52,101 nucleotides of DNA from a virus. Its lineage: Duplodnaviria; Caudoviricetes. Below the pieces are notes generated by a model, which was not told the DNA's origin, did not search any database, and worked only from the letters and a program-made list of their open reading frames with translations. The stretch is taken from positions 1 through 52,101 of IMG/VR virus record IMGVR_UViG_3300014933_000056; one strand, given 5' to 3'. A program made the translations under genes and the position numbers. Positions 2,989 through 11,056 of this stretch are shown here, piece after piece. How positions within the stretch are numbered: position 1 is the first letter of the stretch; each line of letters begins with the position of its first letter.

Positions 2989-3012
2989 GATCCCTCCGTG
3001 ATTGATGTGAAG

Positions 3013-3030
3013 AGTCTAACACGGGATTAG
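3013..3030 (-). promoter_or_regulatory. putative extended -10 promoter / operator
   Basis: Minus strand CTAATCCCGTGTTAGACT; imperfect CTAA-N7-TTAG palindrome shared with 12151-12167. Confidence 0.45.
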
Positions 3031-3037
3031 GGTCTGG

Positions 3038-3232
3038 CTATAGATTCATTCCTTCATATTTCTTAGCATTGCTTTGACACATTACACAAATCCGACGCTC
3101 ACCGGATTCTTTATGTACATTCTTACCACCTCTTTTCATCCCACCCGTACTTAACATCCGACAGGCAGTATCACTGCCTACCCATATGTGAGCTGCTGTA
3201 CTTTTCTTGTTTAGGTTATAAAAATATTCCAT
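3038..3232 (-). CDS. hypothetical protein, possible Zn binder
   Basis: AHIW...TAC...CVMC. Confidence 0.65.
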   Translation of the reverse strand: MEYFYNLNKKSTAAHIWVGSDTACRMLSTGGMKRGGKNVHKESGERRICVMCQSNAKKYEGMNL

Positions 3233-3601
3233 GTTTATCGCAGAGGGAAGTGACTGAGTCTTTTAGGCAAAATCCACCCCTACCCCTGACGCATCAGGGA
3301 AGGGCTGGGGATCGTTATCGCGTCGGTCGTTTCTTCGCAATTGTCGGTCACGCTCATCTCTCAATGTTCCGTCGTGACTGGCAAGACATTTAGACCCATT
3401 GTGAGGCCTCTTCTTAGCGCACTTGCCGAGCTTGTCCCAATTGTTGCTGTTGCTCCGGAGCACCCTAATCTCTCGACCCGGTTCCGTTCTGGCAGTTAAT
3501 CAACAATCGGCGCTATCTCCACCCGCGCTTGCCGAATCGATAGTTTTTTCGGCTCTCGCCCCAGACCAAAACGTACGTGGTCACCAAAATTTCTGAGGCA
3601 A

Positions 3602-3762
3602 GGTATCGGCAGAAAGCAAAAAACCCATTGGTGAACGAGCTTTAGGCTTGGTTGCCACATGTGAAAAGTGCGATACCACTTAACACAGCTTTGACGAAGC
3701 CCGCTCACCAATGGGTTTGCAGGGTCACTTGTATCGAGCTACAACGGGTTACCAATCCGTTG
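3602..3762 (-). ncRNA. c4-like antisense RNA with flanking target sites
   Basis: Long stem (about 3621-3642 with 3697-3718) ending in a U-tract. Internal hairpin loop GTATCG is complementary to CGATAC both upstream (3731-3736) and downstream (3603-3608). 5' hairpin at 3742-3762. Confidence 0.6.
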
Positions 3763-3770
3763 ATGGTGAA

Positions 3771-3799
3771 ATTTTAGGACATGTCCTATTTTATTGCAA
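3771..3799 (-). promoter_or_regulatory. sigma70 promoter with palindromic operator
   Basis: TTGCAA (3794-3799), 17 bp, TAAAAT (3771-3776); perfect 14-bp palindrome TAGGACATGTCCTA at 3775-3788. Confidence 0.75.
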
Positions 3800-3803
3800 G
3801 GGT

Positions 3804-4192
3804 TGTTGGCGCCCCCGAGCTTGAACGGGCGTTTAAGGGAAATCGATTCGCTACCAGCCACACCAACACGGCTGAGGACTACTAGGGGGCACTGCCCTTC
3901 TAAGCTCCGGCACTCTCGGAGGCAATCCTCATGCGTCTTGAGACTGTAAACTTAAAACAAGCCTACTGTAAACTTAACCAACACGGCTGAGAATTTAGTT
4001 ACAGTTGCGATCTGTATGGAGTTCGGGATTAAGGACAATATTACGTGTAGCTGCAGCTATTGACGTAAGTGACTCTCCACTGACCGATCTTCTACCACCC
4101 AAATTCTCATGCGTCTTGGTTGTTGGTACGAGACGCAAATGGGGAACGAGGCCAAAGCCTACGCCCGATCACCGCAACTTCTCATACCAACA
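3804..4192 (-). ncRNA. array of four stem-loop units, two with an identical bulged basal stem
   Basis: accaacacggctgag at 3862-3876 and 3977-3991; ctcatgcgtcttg at 3928-3940 and 4106-4118; TGTTGG/CCAACA-closed units at 3804-3868 and 4121-4192; TATAAT at 4201-4206. Confidence 0.55.
3943..3977. repeat. 13-bp direct repeat actgtaaacttaa x2
   Basis: Copies at 3943-3955 and 3965-3977. Confidence 0.85.
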
Positions 4193-4201
4193 TGCTGAAT
4201 A

Positions 4202-5065
4202 TTATACCGCCACTTCCTGACACTGCATAAGCTTTCGCACCACCGCAAACAATCCATGCTTCTGGTGCAAATCATTGGCATCAAACCCTACCTCGTCAGC
4301 CATCACCCACGGGTGCCCTGTTTCCTCTGCAGACTTGGCGCCGGTTCCGCTTGCGTCGTTATCCGCAAAGATCATCACCTTGCCGGGTATCTGCGAGGCC
4401 ACTGCCACCATGTTCCCAGCACTGAAGCAAACCACCACCGAGGCCTTCATACCGCAGCTTCTGAGAGCTTGATGCACGCTCAGGCCAGTTGCATACCCCT
4501 CAACCAGCCAAGTCTCTCCTGCGTCCTTTACGCCCATCCTAAAGACCGCATTCTTAGCCCTCATGCCTGTGAGCATCTTCTTCACATACTTACGCTCGTC
4601 CGTATCCCAGATAATCTGCTGGTAGCCCTGCAACTTATTCGTGGCCACGTTACGCATCGGGATCAACAGGACGTCATCCAAAACGAAGCCCTTCTCTGCG
4701 CCAAATCCCTTAGCCGTCAGGTACGGGTGATCCTCCAGCTTAGCTGATCTCAGGATCATGTCAGCCTTCAGTGCTGTCTGCTCGTACTTATGCTGCTGCT
4801 CAGACTGCTGGGTTTGACGTTTAGCCGCCCACTGACGCTTTTCTTCGTCTGTCCATGGTTTGGCATTAGGATCGCTGTACCAAATTGTTCTTGCTTCACC
4901 TTGCCAATTAAAAATCCATCCTCTTTCACCATTCCACAAATAAGAGCCGTTTAATGAACGTGGTTTCTCTGTAGTGCCACAACGTCGTATTTTGTCTGAC
5001 GCATAAAATTTTGATGGATTAATTTCTAAACCATGCATTCTGGCAAAATTGATAAAACCATTCAT
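4202..5065 (-). CDS. Toprim-domain DNA primase
   Basis: HPYL..KG, LLIPM, WLVEGYATGLS, VVCFSAGN and IFADND Toprim motifs. Confidence 0.9.
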   Translation of the reverse strand: MNGFINFARMHGLEINPSKFYASDKIRRCGTTEKPRSLNGSYLWNGERGWIFNWQGEARTIWYSDPNAKPWTDEEKRQWAAKRQTQQSEQQHKYEQTALKADMILRSAKLEDHPYLTAKGFGAEKGFVLDDVLLIPMRNVATNKLQGYQQIIWDTDERKYVKKMLTGMRAKNAVFRMGVKDAGETWLVEGYATGLSVHQALRSCGMKASVVVCFSAGNMVAVASQIPGKVMIFADNDASGTGAKSAEETGHPWVMADEVGFDANDLHQKHGLFAVVRKLMQCQEVAV

Positions 5066-5622
5066 ATCAATCTCCCGTTTTCATTTGCCCATGCAATTGG
5101 GTCTTTATTGTATTTACGCAAATTGCATGTGGGGCATAACAATTGCAAATTTTCATCAGCGTGCATGCCGCCTAGATTAATTGGCATAACGTGGTCTAAA
5201 TGATGGCCACTGTTAATTAAATCGGTTTTGCAATTAATACATTTACCACATTGCATTTCCATCAACTTTTTTACAATCCCTTTTGAAATTTTCCCTACTT
5301 GCATGCGTTTTTTTGCTTTTCGGTTTTGATTGTAAATCCTAACCAAGTCTAAATTTTCTTTTTTCCAATTTAAATTAATTAATTTTACAAATGTTATATT
5401 TTTTGCCCGATATTCCTTGCATTGATTACGTAATTTTTCCTTGTTTTCAAAGTTGTACAACTTGCGATAATCTTGAATTTTTTCTTTGTTTTGATCCGCA
5501 TACAACTTAGCTTTTTTTGTATGGCATTTTTTGCATGCAGACCGAAGTCCAAAGATTGTGCCTTTTTGCTTGCCAAACTCAGATAAGTCTTTTTCTGCTT
5601 TGCACAGAGTGCATATTTTCAT
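5062..5622 (-). CDS. HNH homing endonuclease
   Basis: N-terminal CxxC...CxxC; CINC...HLDHVMP...GG.H...NLQLLCPTCN; very AT-rich relative to flanks. Confidence 0.9.
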   Translation of the reverse strand: MKICTLCKAEKDLSEFGKQKGTIFGLRSACKKCHTKKAKLYADQNKEKIQDYRKLYNFENKEKLRNQCKEYRAKNITFVKLINLNWKKENLDLVRIYNQNRKAKKRMQVGKISKGIVKKLMEMQCGKCINCKTDLINSGHHLDHVMPINLGGMHADENLQLLCPTCNLRKYNKDPIAWANENGRLI

Positions 5623-5652
5623 GATGAATCTCTCATGTACGAATCAAGAAGA

Positions 5653-5704
5653 ATGTGGCAGGCAGTGATTCAATCTGCTTTTCCCCCGCTAAAGGTAGCC
5701 ACAT
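5653..5704 (-). ncRNA. three-way-junction leader RNA of the HNH gene
   Basis: ATGTGGC/GCCACAT closing stem, CCTT-TAGC-GGGG and GCAG-ATTGAATCA-CTGC hairpins; loop complementary to GATTC sites at 5641-5646 and 5625-5630 next to the ATG. Confidence 0.55.
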
Positions 5705-5709
5705 CAAAA

Positions 5710-5751
5710 TCATACCACGCCATGAGCGCGTGCAAAGTCTATAAATGTCAT
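5710..5751 (-). pseudogene. orphaned original 5' end of the primase gene
   Basis: MTFIDFARAHGVV* matches the primase start MNGFINFARMHGL; ATGA-coupled to 5748..5906. Confidence 0.7.
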
Positions 5752-5906
5752 GCCCCGTCACCCCAATAAAGTTCTAGCCAATCGTCGTATGCCGCCCAGC
5801 AAAGCAGCCAATCCCACATTAATTGTTCGTTCTTAGATACATCGCAGTAATACTGAGCCATTTGCAGGCAAGTTTCTCTTGGTGGTGGTGGACTCTTAGT
5901 AACCAT
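5748..5906 (-). CDS. Trp-rich hypothetical protein (52 aa)
   Basis: Hand-translated MVTKSPPPPRETCLQMAQYYC...YWGDGA; fills the operon gap. Confidence 0.6.
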   Translation of the reverse strand: MVTKSPPPPRETCLQMAQYYCDVSKNEQLMWDWLLCWAAYDDWLELYWGDGA

Positions 5907-6084
5907 TTTTTTCTTTCAATTTGTCTTGAACTGCAAGCAGCAAACTAAATGGCGCGTCTTTATGTTTTACACATAACTCAAAACACTCCTCTTTTGTCAA
6001 CCCAACCCATTCTTTTGGTAAGCTGTATTCCGATTTAACAAAAACCATTTTGTCTGGGTCTGTTGGATGTGGTTTAAGAGGCAT
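5896..6084 (-). CDS. hypothetical protein
   Basis: KEWVGLT.EE...LKEKN module. Confidence 0.7.
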   Translation of the reverse strand: MPLKPHPTDPDKMVFVKSEYSLPKEWVGLTKEECFELCVKHKDAPFSLLLAVQDKLKEKNGY

Positions 6085-6547
6085 TGTTCTTCTCCCTCAA
6101 AGCTTTTTCTAACATGCGGTACATGCCTATAGTGCCGATTGCGCCCTGCATTTGAACCTTTAGTTCGTAATGCACAGCCTGAATCTCTTCGTCAGTCAGC
6201 CCAACCCATTCTTTCTTTGGTGGGGCGGTTGCTACTTGAATTGCGTCACATAGCCACGAAGGTGGTGATAAATCTGCGTGTTCTCCATCATGCGCAATCA
6301 TTGCCGACCATCTACCTAAACACTCCCACAGGTGCGCTACCGGCTCCGGTTCAGGCTGCGCTAGTCTGGCTCGTATGGATTCTATACTTTGATTTGTTTT
6401 GTTTAAATATTCCTTCATAAACTCCACGCGCGCTGGTCTGTACCATTCTCCATAATGTTGGATGTGCATATCAATTTCTGATTGCTGTGAATCAACCGCG
6501 TTCTCCAAGCAATCAAGCGCCATCTTAAATAGTTCGCGGTCAGTCAT
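6074..6547 (-). CDS. hypothetical protein
   Basis: LAQPEPEPVA...KEWVGLTDEE...LREKN module. Confidence 0.75.
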   Translation of the reverse strand: MTDRELFKMALDCLENAVDSQQSEIDMHIQHYGEWYRPARVEFMKEYLNKTNQSIESIRARLAQPEPEPVAHLWECLGRWSAMIAHDGEHADLSPPSWLCDAIQVATAPPKKEWVGLTDEEIQAVHYELKVQMQGAIGTIGMYRMLEKALREKNNAS

Positions 6548-8704: not shown

Positions 8705-11056
8705 TTATATCTTTTTTCTCTTCTGCCATGAAATATTCATCTGCCGAATCTTATTGACCACGTTAGTCGTGATCTCTACGTTCGGTGCCTTGCTAAACGC
8801 CCACTTCGTGTCCTGCCCTGTCATCTGTTTAAACAGGTGCCACGCCCTACCTGACTGCGACTCCGGCTTGCTGTGATACCTCGCATAGGTACAGATCTGA
8901 TTCCATAAGTGCTCAGCGTTATCTGCAAGCTTTCTTTTGCTGACACCCTCGCCAATAAAGATCTCTTTCATATGACCCGGCAAAGCCTCGCTGACCTGCT
9001 TACTTACCCGCTCAAACCCGCAGGCCATGCACCGCTTATGAAACGGCAGGTAGCCGCAACGTGGGCATCCCTTGGCGTCGAACTCTTCCTTGGTGCGGAT
9101 CTTCTTATCCAGCTTGTCACCGGCGTCCAGCTCAGCCAATCCGTTGAAAAATATCTCGTTGAAGTCCTCAAAAAACCGAATGATGTTTCCCGAGAAATCC
9201 AACAAGTGGCAGTCCTTCTTGCCTGTCTCAGGTGATACACGCAGGCCACGCCCCCACATCTGGATAGCCGTGCTCAGTGACTTACGAAGTGGCCTTGCAT
9301 CGCAGATACAACCAACGTCAGGTACGTCAAAGCCCTTCGCTAAGGCCTCTACGGAGATCAAGACCTTCAGGTAGCTATCAGGCTTGCGGTACTCGTCCAA
9401 AAGCATCTCGCGCTCTTTAGCGGTGGTCTCTGAGGTAAAGACTGCAGCCATCACACCGGCGGCAATAAACTGACGAGCCAGCTCTTCGCAGTGCTTAATC
9501 GTTGCGCCAAAGATGATGGTCTTGCGGTTGTCGCCAAACTTCTGCCAATCGTTCACCACGTCCCCAACGATCTTCAGCTCACGCTCTTCGGCTGCTTTTT
9601 CTGTCCACTCGCCGCCCTTGGTCTCTGCGCCTGTCATATCGGGCTTAGCGCACGAAAATATGCGCATGGGTACCAACACCCCCGACTGAGTCAGATCGTG
9701 CATCGTGGTGGCGTTTACGATGTTTGTGAATACCTTCCCAAGGCCTGCAGTAAACGGGGTAGCCGACAAACCAATTACCGTAGCGTTCGTCTCTTTGGCA
9801 AACTCAGTCCATGCCTTGTAGGTCGTATGGCAGTTGTGAACTAAGATGCCCTCTGCAAAATATGATGGATGGCCTGAGACCCGTAGGTTGTAAACAAGTT
9901 CATCGCTTCCTCGTTCTTCAACCTCAACACTTTCCACCCAAGGTTGCGAAGCAAAGCATCCTTTTTCTGATCCTGCATTTGACGCTTCGACGCCCCATGG
10001 CTCGGGCCATCCAGTTCGATTGCAATCATCAGTTCCTTGTTCGCCACATCCACCTTGTAGTGATGCGGATAGCCCTGCTTCGAGGACTTCAATGTGCAAA
10101 TAACGACCTCTGTTAGCCATGGGAAGCCTAACGCTTGTGCCGCCATGGCTTGTGGTTTTGTTAGACCAGTACCATTGCCTCCACGTACCTTCGGCCCATG
10201 ACCGATTGCCTTCAATGTTTTCTGCATTTTCAGGCGCGATTCTTCGGAGTGCATCGGGTTCTTCAGCCTCTTCGCACAAGACTGCCCACAGCATTGTTGC
10301 TGTTTGAAGTTCGACTCCAGTTGAGGCATCGGCTTCCCGTTGTAGCCTTTCACCATTTTTGGCATGAAGGGTTTTGTACAAACCACACACATCTTGAAAG
10401 CGAAATAACCGCGAACCGATTTCCAAGGAGCCAGCGGGTCGCCATCCCAAGTTGGTAAATATTGGATGGTCTGGGGTGCATTCAAATTTTGTTCCATCGG
10501 ACAACCTCACTTTGCAAATTGATGATGCTGGCTTTGAAAAGACAGAGTCAATTCGACCAACGCCCATTGCATTGTATATGAGTTCGCCACTATGCAGTGT
10601 GCGTATCTCACGATATCCATGAGGAGTGGCTATCAATGTGTCGCCGGGGAAGCACTCATCAACCACCAGAACGTCCATCTGAGGCCAGAACTCGCGCTTG
10701 GCGATAGTCTGCACACTAGCGATTTGGAATAGCTCATCAGGACGCCTGCGCCAGTGCTTGGCTTGGATTACGCCGTGGGCATGCATACCGTAGCGATCAG
10801 CGACCGCAGAAGTTTGGTTGATTAGGGTTGTGCGATCACACAGGAAGACAGCACGTTTACCCTTCTGAACGGCCTCGTTGCAGATACGCAGGCCTAGGTA
10901 AGTCTTCCCAGCACCCGTAGGCGCCATGATCAATTGATTCTTATGTCCTTCCCTGAAACCCTTCCGTAAGGCTTCATGAGCCTGTAATTGGAAGGGTCTT
11001 GCTTCAGGGAATTTGGTTCCATCATCACGCTCACTTGGCGCTAGGGTAGAAGTCAT
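8705..11056 (-). CDS. SF2 (DEAD/DEAH-box) DNA helicase, intein-containing
   Basis: APTGAGKT; DE|CH split by the intein; GLSATP; KGFDVP; QMWGRGLR; C-terminal CPRC..C..C. Confidence 0.92.
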   Translation of the reverse strand: MTSTLAPSERDDGTKFPEARPFQLQAHEALRKGFREGHKNQLIMAPTGAGKTYLGLRICNEAVQKGKRAVFLCDRTTLINQTSAVADRYGMHAHGVIQAKHWRRRPDELFQIASVQTIAKREFWPQMDVLVVDECFPGDTLIATPHGYREIRTLHSGELIYNAMGVGRIDSVFSKPASSICKVRLSDGTKFECTPDHPIFTNLGWRPAGSLEIGSRLFRFQDVCGLYKTLHAKNGERLQREADASTGVELQTATMLWAVLCEEAEEPDALRRIAPENAENIEGNRSWAEGTWRQWYWSNKTTSHGGTSVRLPMANRGRYLHIEVLEAGLSASLQGGCGEQGTDDCNRTGWPEPWGVEASNAGSEKGCFASQPWVESVEVEERGSDELVYNLRVSGHPSYFAEGILVHNCHTTYKAWTEFAKETNATVIGLSATPFTAGLGKVFTNIVNATTMHDLTQSGVLVPMRIFSCAKPDMTGAETKGGEWTEKAAEERELKIVGDVVNDWQKFGDNRKTIIFGATIKHCEELARQFIAAGVMAAVFTSETTAKEREMLLDEYRKPDSYLKVLISVEALAKGFDVPDVGCICDARPLRKSLSTAIQMWGRGLRVSPETGKKDCHLLDFSGNIIRFFEDFNEIFFNGLAELDAGDKLDKKIRTKEEFDAKGCPRCGYLPFHKRCMACGFERVSKQVSEALPGHMKEIFIGEGVSKRKLADNAEHLWNQICTYARYHSKPESQSGRAWHLFKQMTGQDTKWAFSKAPNVEITTNVVNKIRQMNISWQKRKKI
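9833..10654 (-). mobile_element. intein (274 aa) in helicase motif II
   Basis: CFPGDTLI block A; ECTPDHPIF block B; VYNLRV...YFAEGILVHN blocks F/G followed by Cys+1; removal restores VVDECH. Confidence 0.93.
9841..10497 (-). CDS. Vsr/DUF559-like endonuclease overprinted on the intein (+1 frame)
   Basis: CVVC...CCGQSC Zn motif; NPMHSEESRLKM; YKVDVA...IAIELDGPSH...D..KD..L...GWKVLR; TGAGGT 6 nt before the ATG. Confidence 0.85.
   Translation of the reverse strand: MEQNLNAPQTIQYLPTWDGDPLAPWKSVRGYFAFKMCVVCTKPFMPKMVKGYNGKPMPQLESNFKQQQCCGQSCAKRLKNPMHSEESRLKMQKTLKAIGHGPKVRGGNGTGLTKPQAMAAQALGFPWLTEVVICTLKSSKQGYPHHYKVDVANKELMIAIELDGPSHGASKRQMQDQKKDALLRNLGWKVLRLKNEEAMNLFTTYGSQAIHHILQRAS

Follow-up and report, generated by a model that had tools for sequence, protein, structure and literature searches.

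A probable mobile homing-endonuclease cassette with an int-alpA-type RNA leader and a replacement gene start in a phage Toprim primase gene

We analysed the virus record IMGVR_UViG_3300014933_000056 (Duplodnaviria; Caudoviricetes) from IMG/VR; the window referred to below is this entire record of 52,101 bases. In it, an HNH endonuclease gene lies directly before the gene for a Toprim primase, and a short open reading frame (ORF) upstream of both resembles the beginning of that primase. The 52-aa (amino acid) gene upstream, the short ORF (hereafter the stub), the HNH gene and the primase gene are all on the minus strand in the ORF list. Relative loci and contigs are denoted by L-numbers, and public metagenome runs by X-numbers. 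The main features of the locus are as follows.

5748 to 5906, minus strand: gene of 52 amino acids (aa), no assigned function, its TGA overlapping the ATG of the stub (ATGA)
5710 to 5751, minus strand: stub of the original primase start, 13 codons, MTFIDFARAHGVV followed by a stop, native at 5715 to 5751
4885 to 5714, minus strand: inserted cassette of 830 nucleotides (nt), standing in for 141 nt of the uninterrupted allele
5062 to 5622, minus strand: HNH endonuclease gene, 186 aa, its TGA overlapping the primase ATG
4202 to 5065, minus strand: Toprim primase gene (Pfam Toprim_3), 287 aa, starting MNGFINFARMHGL
4885 to 5065, minus strand: foreign primase 5' end, codons 1 to 60 and one base, delimited by G+C content at third codon positions (GC3) and by identity to L086
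4202 to 4884, minus strand: native primase remainder, codon 61 to stop, holding the Toprim domain, assigned from its kin and Pfam

The cassette consists, in order, of a -10-like TATGAT, a 68-nt RNA leader, the HNH gene and foreign primase codons 1 to 60. It enters the primase gene one base beyond codon 12, and the final 5 nt of the stub, stop included, are insert DNA. The stub ORF and the HNH gene are separated by 87 nt. The reading frame of the primase is unbroken and its start overlaps the HNH stop. The 52-aa gene matched no Pfam family. An initial annotation, made from the sequence alone, had pointed out the 13-codon ORF, its ATG overlapping the TGA of the gene before it, and its likeness to the primase start. 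These observations hold: 8 of 12 aligned residues of the stub and the primase start match, with one gap.

The uninterrupted allele was found in relatives. The IMG/VR contig L003/L006 encodes a primase 86% identical overall to that of the window, and there a homologous 52-aa gene (about 88% DNA identity) is ATGA-coupled to the uninterrupted primase MTFIDFARSHGVEIDYNKL..., with no HNH gene. The HNH gene is also absent in L086 and L087; across L003/L006, L086 and L087 the primase core is 84-92% identical to that of the window. In all of them the primase starts MTFIDFARSHGVEID behind the same ATGA-coupled upstream gene, and neither a stub nor an AT-rich primase start was present. The nearest HNH-free relative reads via MTFIDFAR.HGV directly into primase. 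The initial annotation had proposed this alignment as a check, and the passage from upstream gene to primase is indeed without interruption.

Identity between the window and L003 spans the upstream gene plus the initial 37 nt of the stub, 35 of which are identical to the true primase start of L003, and ends after 5715. Within the primase gene, nucleotide identity of the two ranges from 0.42 to 0.73 through codon 55 and is about 0.87 beginning with codon 61. Furthermore, a contig of run X3 matched 4700-4884 and 5715-5907, joined by 141 letters instead of 830, and in runs X2 and X5 loose ends at 5715 and 4884 continue into native sequence. Because of the breaks seen in relatives and the X3 contig, we place the insert at 4885-5714 and conclude that the uninterrupted allele exists in nature. 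The likeness of stub and primase is not due to chance, given the L003 match, the permuted break described below and the X3 contig. The insertion had been predicted at about 12 codons into primase, and the 4884/5715 junction in a public contig, with 141 letters in between, agrees with this. Run X1 carries the HNH gene with 100% identity over 5101-5562, and one of its contigs departs at 5072 into a different primase start; from this contig, nuclease gene and carried 5' end may be reshuffled among cassettes.

To characterize the origin of the first primase codons, 160 primase loci were fetched (the 80 best each from 120 viral and 216 metagenome relatives). These gave 122 distinct coding sequences; those of at least 600 nt were tabulated for GC3, and the 116 complete ones were aligned. 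Along the window primase, sliding GC3 was 0.15-0.30 in codons 1-60 and 0.5-0.9 afterwards, with overall values of 0.23 and 0.65 for the two parts; the HNH gene has a GC3 of 0.34 and a GC content of 0.33. The AT-rich start noted in the initial annotation is therefore confirmed by the sliding GC3, but the break is sharp and falls at codon 60/61, not near codon 65. A maximum chi-square comparison of the window with L086 put the break at nt 180, with identity of 0.57 to the left and 0.88 to the right (0 of 300 permutations as high).

The two parts of the gene also differ in their nearest kin, as had been expected of separate 5' and 3' trees. Among the 116 aligned sequences, the closest to the window in codons 62 to the end were L086 (92% aa identity), L006 (90%) and L087 (84%), and these were merely 58-62% identical to it in codons 1-61. 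The closest in codons 1-61 were L008 (80%), L107, L081 and L010 (77% each), and L008, L107 and L081 are other HNH-linked alleles. In the core tree the window grouped with L086, L006 and L087 with a Shimodaira-Hasegawa-like approximate likelihood ratio (SH-aLRT) of 99, and the four HNH-bearing rows were scattered, needing 4 changes. In the 5' tree (60 columns) the HNH label needed 2 changes, a number as low as this being reached in 0 of 500 shuffles. Forcing the 5' end of the window into its core clade cost 51 log-likelihood units.

When GC3 of the rest was subtracted from GC3 of codons 1-61, the four HNH-linked alleles were the most extreme of the 122 (-0.43, -0.36, -0.27 and -0.22). L102 came next (-0.20), and the remaining coding sequences ranged from -0.17 to +0.19, with L003/L006, L086 and L087 at +0.02 to +0.08. 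Thus, the first primase codons behind the HNH gene are of foreign origin, and all HNH-linked alleles measured have a primase 5' end that is AT-richer than the remainder. The element had been thought to carry a synonymous-diverged 5' end. It does carry a diverged one, but a difference from the native type at about 40% of the amino acids marks it as a foreign homologue, beyond synonymous recoding.

These data also bear on the possibility that the cassette layout is ancestral and that the HNH-free relatives lost the HNH gene by deletion between stub and duplicated start. The stub and the new start are direct repeats able to recombine, and the 5' part is cassette-like in some HNH-free alleles (L102, L010, L047). 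However, a deletion would keep the AT-rich foreign codons 13-60, whereas the 5' ends of L003/L006, L086 and L087 match their own core in GC3 and share only the 58-62% identity with that of the window; the 4 changes on the core tree speak against it as well. This explanation is already disfavoured, and we regard it as very unlikely.

The HNH protein carries a complete HNH (beta-beta-alpha metal) nuclease domain: Pfam PF01844 (E 1.3e-10) matched residues 128-173 on profile positions 1-47 of 47, and HNH_5 matched too. A CxxC...CxxC region lies at the N-terminus, and GGGAG occurs in the last HNH codons, ahead of the primase ATG. In a tblastn search of the fetched loci with the HNH protein, homologues directly upstream of primase were found only in the window, L107, L004/L008 and L081. 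Identity to the window protein is 80% in L107, 79% in L217, 65% in L004/L008 and 44% in L081; in the set searched, the gene is present in the window and in 4 of 165 fetched loci. Two further marks of a free-standing homing endonuclease were observed, namely presence or absence at one site among close relatives and co-conversion of flanking DNA with variable tract ends. A group I intron or intein does not fit, as the HNH gene is out of frame with the primase and bounded by stops, and Rfam found no intron family in 3000-6200 even at E up to 1. We also observed HNH genes that share the zinc-ribbon type of the window gene (33-37% identical to it) immediately downstream of primase or its distant homologues in L180, L194, L211 (leader at 1501) and L076 (3361-3960), so this HNH family is tied to primase on either side.

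The order of stub, leader, HNH gene and stop/start-overlapped primase recurs in L107, L004/L008 and L217. The stubs of L107 (MSFEFINFARAHGVL, then a stop) and L004 (MSFIDFARAHGVV, then a stop) both end at the same base as the window stub, and L217, which came from a later pattern scan, has the stub MNFIQFARAHGVI, then a stop. The left junction is identical in the four contigs (window, L107, L004, L217). Close uninterrupted relatives allowed two right junctions to be measured, and these are not the same, lying at codon 60 for the window and at codon 53 for L008. The latter was determined against L124, an uninterrupted relative with 96% DNA identity in the core, where the maximum chi-square break fell at nt 159 (0 of 300 permutations as high); L008 and L124 have different genes upstream of primase. 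A common left junction with differing right junctions is expected of repeated break repair from a cassette with one founding left junction.

This recurrence also bears on the possibility of an assembly artefact, in which a chimera of two phage populations would have been joined at the repeated primase starts. The window is a metagenome-assembled record, and the identical HNH gene of run X1 is linked, past its loose end at 5072, to a different primase start, as such a chimera would allow. However, the same part order and the same left junction occur in four independently assembled contigs from different collections, and the reading frames and overlapping stop/start codons are intact at every junction. 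An artefact is therefore extremely improbable.

Two further alleles are informative about the replaced tract. L200 has a -10 and leader of the window type and an HNH protein 39% identical, and its junction directly follows the primase ATG; set against its relative L074, it has foreign sequence in patches, at codons 1-6 and 47-61. In L102, which has no HNH gene, the comparison with L143 showed native sequence in codons 1-15, a cassette-like patch in codons 16-52 and about 95% identity in the remainder. Resolution of repair inside the gene would be expected to leave such a patch. The replaced tracts (window codons 13-60, L008 13-53, L200 47-61, L102 16-52) overlap in codons 47-52, which gives one more feature.

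4910 to 4927, minus strand: candidate HNH target site, codons 47-52, in variant form here, from the overlap of four tracts

From this overlap, which is thin evidence, HNH may act on uninterrupted alleles near codons 47-52. That the swapped 5' end would remove the cut site has its sole support in the same sharing of codons 47-52 by four independent tracts.

The interval between the stub and the HNH gene holds the following expression-related features.

5709 to 5736, minus strand: promoter-like site, with -35-like TTTGCA at 5731-5736, a 16-nt spacer and TG-extended TATGAT at 5709-5714
5638 to 5705, minus strand: structured leader, 68 nt, Rfam RF02996 (int-alpA RNA), an outer stem around two hairpins
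5641 to 5646, minus strand: segment A (TGATTC), proposed from covariation to form a pseudoknot with the hairpin 2 loop (5666-5671)
5625 to 5630, minus strand: segment B (GATTCA), between a Shine-Dalgarno-like GAGAG and the HNH ATG, complementary to the hairpin 2 loop

The leader scored 39.0 bits against RF02996 (gathering score 35.8) over model positions 1-71 of 71, and it was the sole Rfam match in the whole window. The name int-alpA comes from the neighbourhood of integrase and alpA genes. Leaders of L168, L169 and L174 also reached the gathering score, and those of the other sources scored at that point stayed below it. Two scans of IMG/VR with exact patterns yielded 11 loci (10 of them real) and 36 loci. 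In the 32 distinct leaders printed from the 36 loci, a TAnAAT-like hexamer lies about 8 nt before the outer stem in all but L203. We sent 29 of 35 downstream ORFs to Pfam, omitting six near-duplicates. Of these distinct ORFs from viral loci, 27 encode HNH_3 (with AP2 or NUMOD4), HNH/HNH_5, or GIY-YIG with NUMOD3; in the other two cases, L179 had no Pfam match and L184 was cut by the contig end. A leader-only DNA search against named phages gave no match.

The fold of the leader is supported by covariation. In 40 leaders, 93.1% of the cells were paired and 15 of 22 pairs changed on both sides, which 0 of 500 shuffles reached; slid controls were 38-57% paired. In the outer stem, 7 of 8 pairs changed on both sides, and pair 32-44 of hairpin 2 was observed as AU, UA, GC and CG. 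Hairpin 1 was fixed by the search pattern, and only L004 tests it. Helix 4, between the hairpin 2 loop and segment A, was 93.5% paired, its pair 40-68 being UA in 20 rows and CG in 13. The loop has two complements, one segment 8-24 nt (mostly 12-16) after the stem and one before the start codon, and both track the loop across 12 loop sequences. This points to a possible role of segment B in translation switching.

The -35-like TTTGCA lies within the native stub, the -10-like hexamer is the first six bases of the insert, and the TGA of the stub falls inside it. We consider this site a putative promoter. In most leader-nuclease loci (L177-L212, L166-L176), the stop of the upstream ORF is likewise a TAA, TAG or TGA within the -10-like hexamer, so the first bases of the cassette end upstream translation just before the RNA fold. 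The window leader also contains a 5-codon ORF at 5619-5636 on the minus strand (ATG AGA GAT TCA TCA TGA) with an ATGA overlap with the HNH start, and similar mini-ORFs or start-stop pairs were seen in many leaders, not all. Clear leaders with other loops stand before ORFs of 174-273 aa in L213, L215, L216 and L222 (bins Planctomycetota, Nitrospinota and Kuenenia); these ORFs may be unknown nucleases, or the leader may be used differently there.

The same layout was found in a second target gene. L196, on the same contig as L168, has the stub MRKKCRRKIW followed by a stop, the leader, an HNH_3-AP2 gene and then a gene of 152 aa starting MRKKCKRKIWATNIDVV, whose first 35 or so codons are foreign. 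L201, on the same contig as L173, has a similar stub. Among 30 distinct leader loci, clear stubs occurred in these two only (scores 60 and 39; all others at most 31). In L257, an uninterrupted relative of L196, the upstream flank is about 96% identical and leads directly into MRKKCRRKIWSTKIDPIAHA. Past the HNH gene, identity of L196 and L257 is 0.60-0.83 for about 105 nt and then 0.87-1.00 (mostly at least 0.93). With the nuclease of L196 unrelated to that of the window, the layout extends beyond primase and beyond a single nuclease family.

We then weighed whether ordinary mosaic recombination could account for the locus. One illegitimate exchange with an AT-rich phage would have brought in HNH gene and primase 5' end together; the HNH gene would be passive, and the stub would be a scar inherited vertically or moved by general recombination. 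The phages are indeed mosaic, as the differing upstream genes of L008 and L124 next to 96% identical primase cores indicate, and the identical left junction in all four stub-bearing contigs fits a single founding event. However, the two invaded genomes differ from their close relatives by 4-12% in the core, their cassettes are only 65% alike in the HNH protein, and their right junctions differ. An unrelated nuclease family shows the layout in another target gene, no part of the HNH motif is missing, and the HNH-less patch allele L102 resembles break repair centred on codons 16-52. We consider this explanation unlikely.

Taken together, the data favour, with a probability of roughly 80%, a mobile homing-endonuclease cassette within the phage Toprim primase gene, which is presumably essential; the cassette is made up of a -10, an int-alpA-type leader, an HNH gene and replacement first 60 codons. 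The central proposal of the initial annotation, an insert in primase that carries its own 5' end, is thus upheld by the relatives, the GC3 profile and the trees. The HNH protein of the cassette is predicted to cleave, to home and to spare its carrier. It would nick or cut uninterrupted primase alleles of co-infecting relatives, probably near codons 47-52, and the break would be repaired from the cassette-bearing genome. Repair copying would run leftward via the diverged 5' end and the HNH gene to the near-identical 37-nt stub, and rightward it would resolve at a variable point. The diverged 5' end would shield the carrier from its own nuclease and block resolution before the HNH gene is copied. 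The stub would exist because upstream genes differ among mosaic phages, so that the first left junction had to fall inside the target gene. Finally, the expression signals of primase would now lie in the cassette, as GGGAG and the overlapping stop/start, and simple loss of the HNH gene would therefore be penalised.

Several observations weigh against this interpretation. With the 5' end of the window forced into its core clade, the approximately unbiased (AU) test gave p 0.066 on the 60 columns, so that vertical descent is not rejected by this test taken by itself. All 4 of the aligned HNH-linked alleles have F at residue 52, yet 36 of 112 HNH-free alleles share it (the others have M in 72, W in 2 and Q in 2), so the variant is not private to the cassette. 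The stub layout is a minority, as 28 of 30 distinct leader-nuclease viral loci have no stub. Folded as a single sequence, the leader did not surpass shuffled sequence in free energy (z -0.13). As for the promoter, the match is weak, with 9 of 12 positions and 2 sites in the region compared with 3.9 expected from shuffles. Of 5 real leaders from a bacterial-bin scan, only one stands before an HNH gene, and the other 4 precede ORFs without a Pfam family. L081 has the HNH gene directly before primase with neither stub nor leader. All sequences are metagenome assemblies, and both the phage and its host are uncultured.

For L081, we considered its order (helicase, HNH, primase, no stub) as the donor layout and dropped this as unproven; its HNH gene looks hybrid. 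L004 has a second, leaderless HNH gene directly after the helicase (1953-2537), and the HNH gene of L081 (1935-2504) resembles a fusion of its 5' two-thirds with the tail of the cassette HNH, the intervening genes being gone. This suggests that L081 may be a secondary deletion by recombination between two nuclease paralogues.

A wider proposal, to which we assign slightly less than an even chance, is that int-alpA RNA is a portable expression leader of free-standing homing-endonuclease genes. It would combine a -10, a three-helix fold and a loop that pairs with a decoy or the ribosome-binding region, and would be used by HNH, HNH_3-AP2, HNH_3-NUMOD4 and GIY-YIG nucleases. Such cassettes would enter the 5' ends of phage genes without intron or intein via a diverged replacement 5' end, and overlapped tracts would reveal their target sites.

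Other elements lie near the locus. A GIY-YIG protein gene (227 aa, Pfam PF01541; 8000-8683, minus strand; GC 0.31, GC3 0.20) stands just downstream of the helicase gene, and the Rfam scan of the window found no int-alpA-type leader at it. The helicase (783 aa; 8705-11056, minus strand) contains an intein (Pfam Intein_splicing, residues 169-408), and its homologues in L004 and L081 are 509 aa long and intein-free. With the HNH cassette, the GIY-YIG gene and the helicase intein, the replication module holds three kinds of selfish element. Downstream of primase, about 970 nt (3233-4201) contain no convincing gene and no Rfam family above threshold. This stretch has direct repeats of 15-17 nt (3862/3977, 3924/4102) and a 22-nt inverted repeat (3621-3642 with 3697-3718), and it may be an origin or regulatory region. 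No tRNA genes were found in the window. A DNA search of named phages with 4100-6100 returned only two distant primase matches, Acidovorax phage AP1 and a Caudoviricetes sp. record. Host assignment from genome-bin matches was dropped, as the bins name discordant phyla; the bin label of L217 (beta proteobacterium) and the AP1 match give the only hint of a link to Betaproteobacteria.

The layout described here would be a third way for a homing endonuclease to reside inside an important gene, besides an intron or intein and besides dividing the gene into two pieces: a spare copy of the displaced gene end arrives with the element, as is known from fungal mitochondria. It is visible in two target genes with the uninvaded allele at hand each time, and therefore target-site mapping and homing assays can be designed directly. 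The orphan Rfam motif int-alpA gains a concrete, testable role and a gene context. For annotation, short ORFs before phage nuclease genes should not be read as genes, nor AT-rich gene starts as sequencing oddities.

In our literature searches, no stub accompanied by a replacement 5' end turned up in a phage, nor did any paper connect int-alpA with nuclease genes. The matched passages of one paper hold nothing on duplicated gene starts (PMC10448857). The paper on the motif class makes no mention of int-alpA in its main text, and passages of one paper use 'int-alpA' for a gene order in satellites. Compared with RF02996, the leader matches all 71 model positions and the three model helices covary in the 40 leaders. 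However, RF02996 is listed as a candidate sRNA (small RNA), whereas in the present data it forms a 5' leader, preceded by a -10-like hexamer and followed by a nuclease gene, and the window-type leader adds a loop-to-downstream pairing that is not in the model.

Among T4-like phages, the seg and mob genes treated in passages of PMC2988022 resemble the cassette in being stand-alone nucleases beside a target gene, missing in close relatives and with co-converted flanks, and in that host expression signals embedded in the nuclease gene favour retention. According to the same passages, they differ in lying between genes or splitting a gene into two polypeptides (mobE in nrdA of Aeh1; mobA at gene 60/39). 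In the phage cassette, by contrast, primase stays in one piece since the element supplies a new 5' end. The mobA gene and the gene 60 bypass element have reportedly been described as one mobile cassette. The hairpins of T4 that sequester ribosome-binding sites (I-TevI, I-TevII, I-TevIII, segB and mobE of Aeh1) likewise have a promoter just before a structured leader, and like the int-alpA-type leader they could limit translation of a potentially harmful nuclease. The hairpins covered in these passages are simple and gene-specific, whereas the int-alpA-type leader is one conserved multi-helix motif in at least three nuclease families (PMC2988022).

The closest precedent appears to be the fungal mitochondrial gene hybrids made by mobile endonuclease ORFs, which passages of PMC3630166 describe for atp6 of Allomyces macrogynus and for atp6, atp9, cox2 and nad3 of Glomus sp.; an N-terminal duplication by intron mobility is described in part of a study on Tremella fuciformis mitochondria (PMC8393795). 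In the hybrids, as in the cassette, the endonuclease ORF brings a foreign, diverged gene end and that copy is expressed, while the native end is an unused duplicate that matches close relatives and the carried end groups elsewhere on the tree. The hybrids in these passages differ in that the 3' end is swapped and the ORF is often fused in frame, in organelle genomes and with LAGLIDADG or GIY-YIG nucleases (PMC3630166). The phage cassette has the foreign copy and the native duplicate with the ends mirrored: it replaces the 5' end, including the start codon, and its HNH gene occupies a separate frame in a phage genome, with its own promoter-like element and RNA leader.

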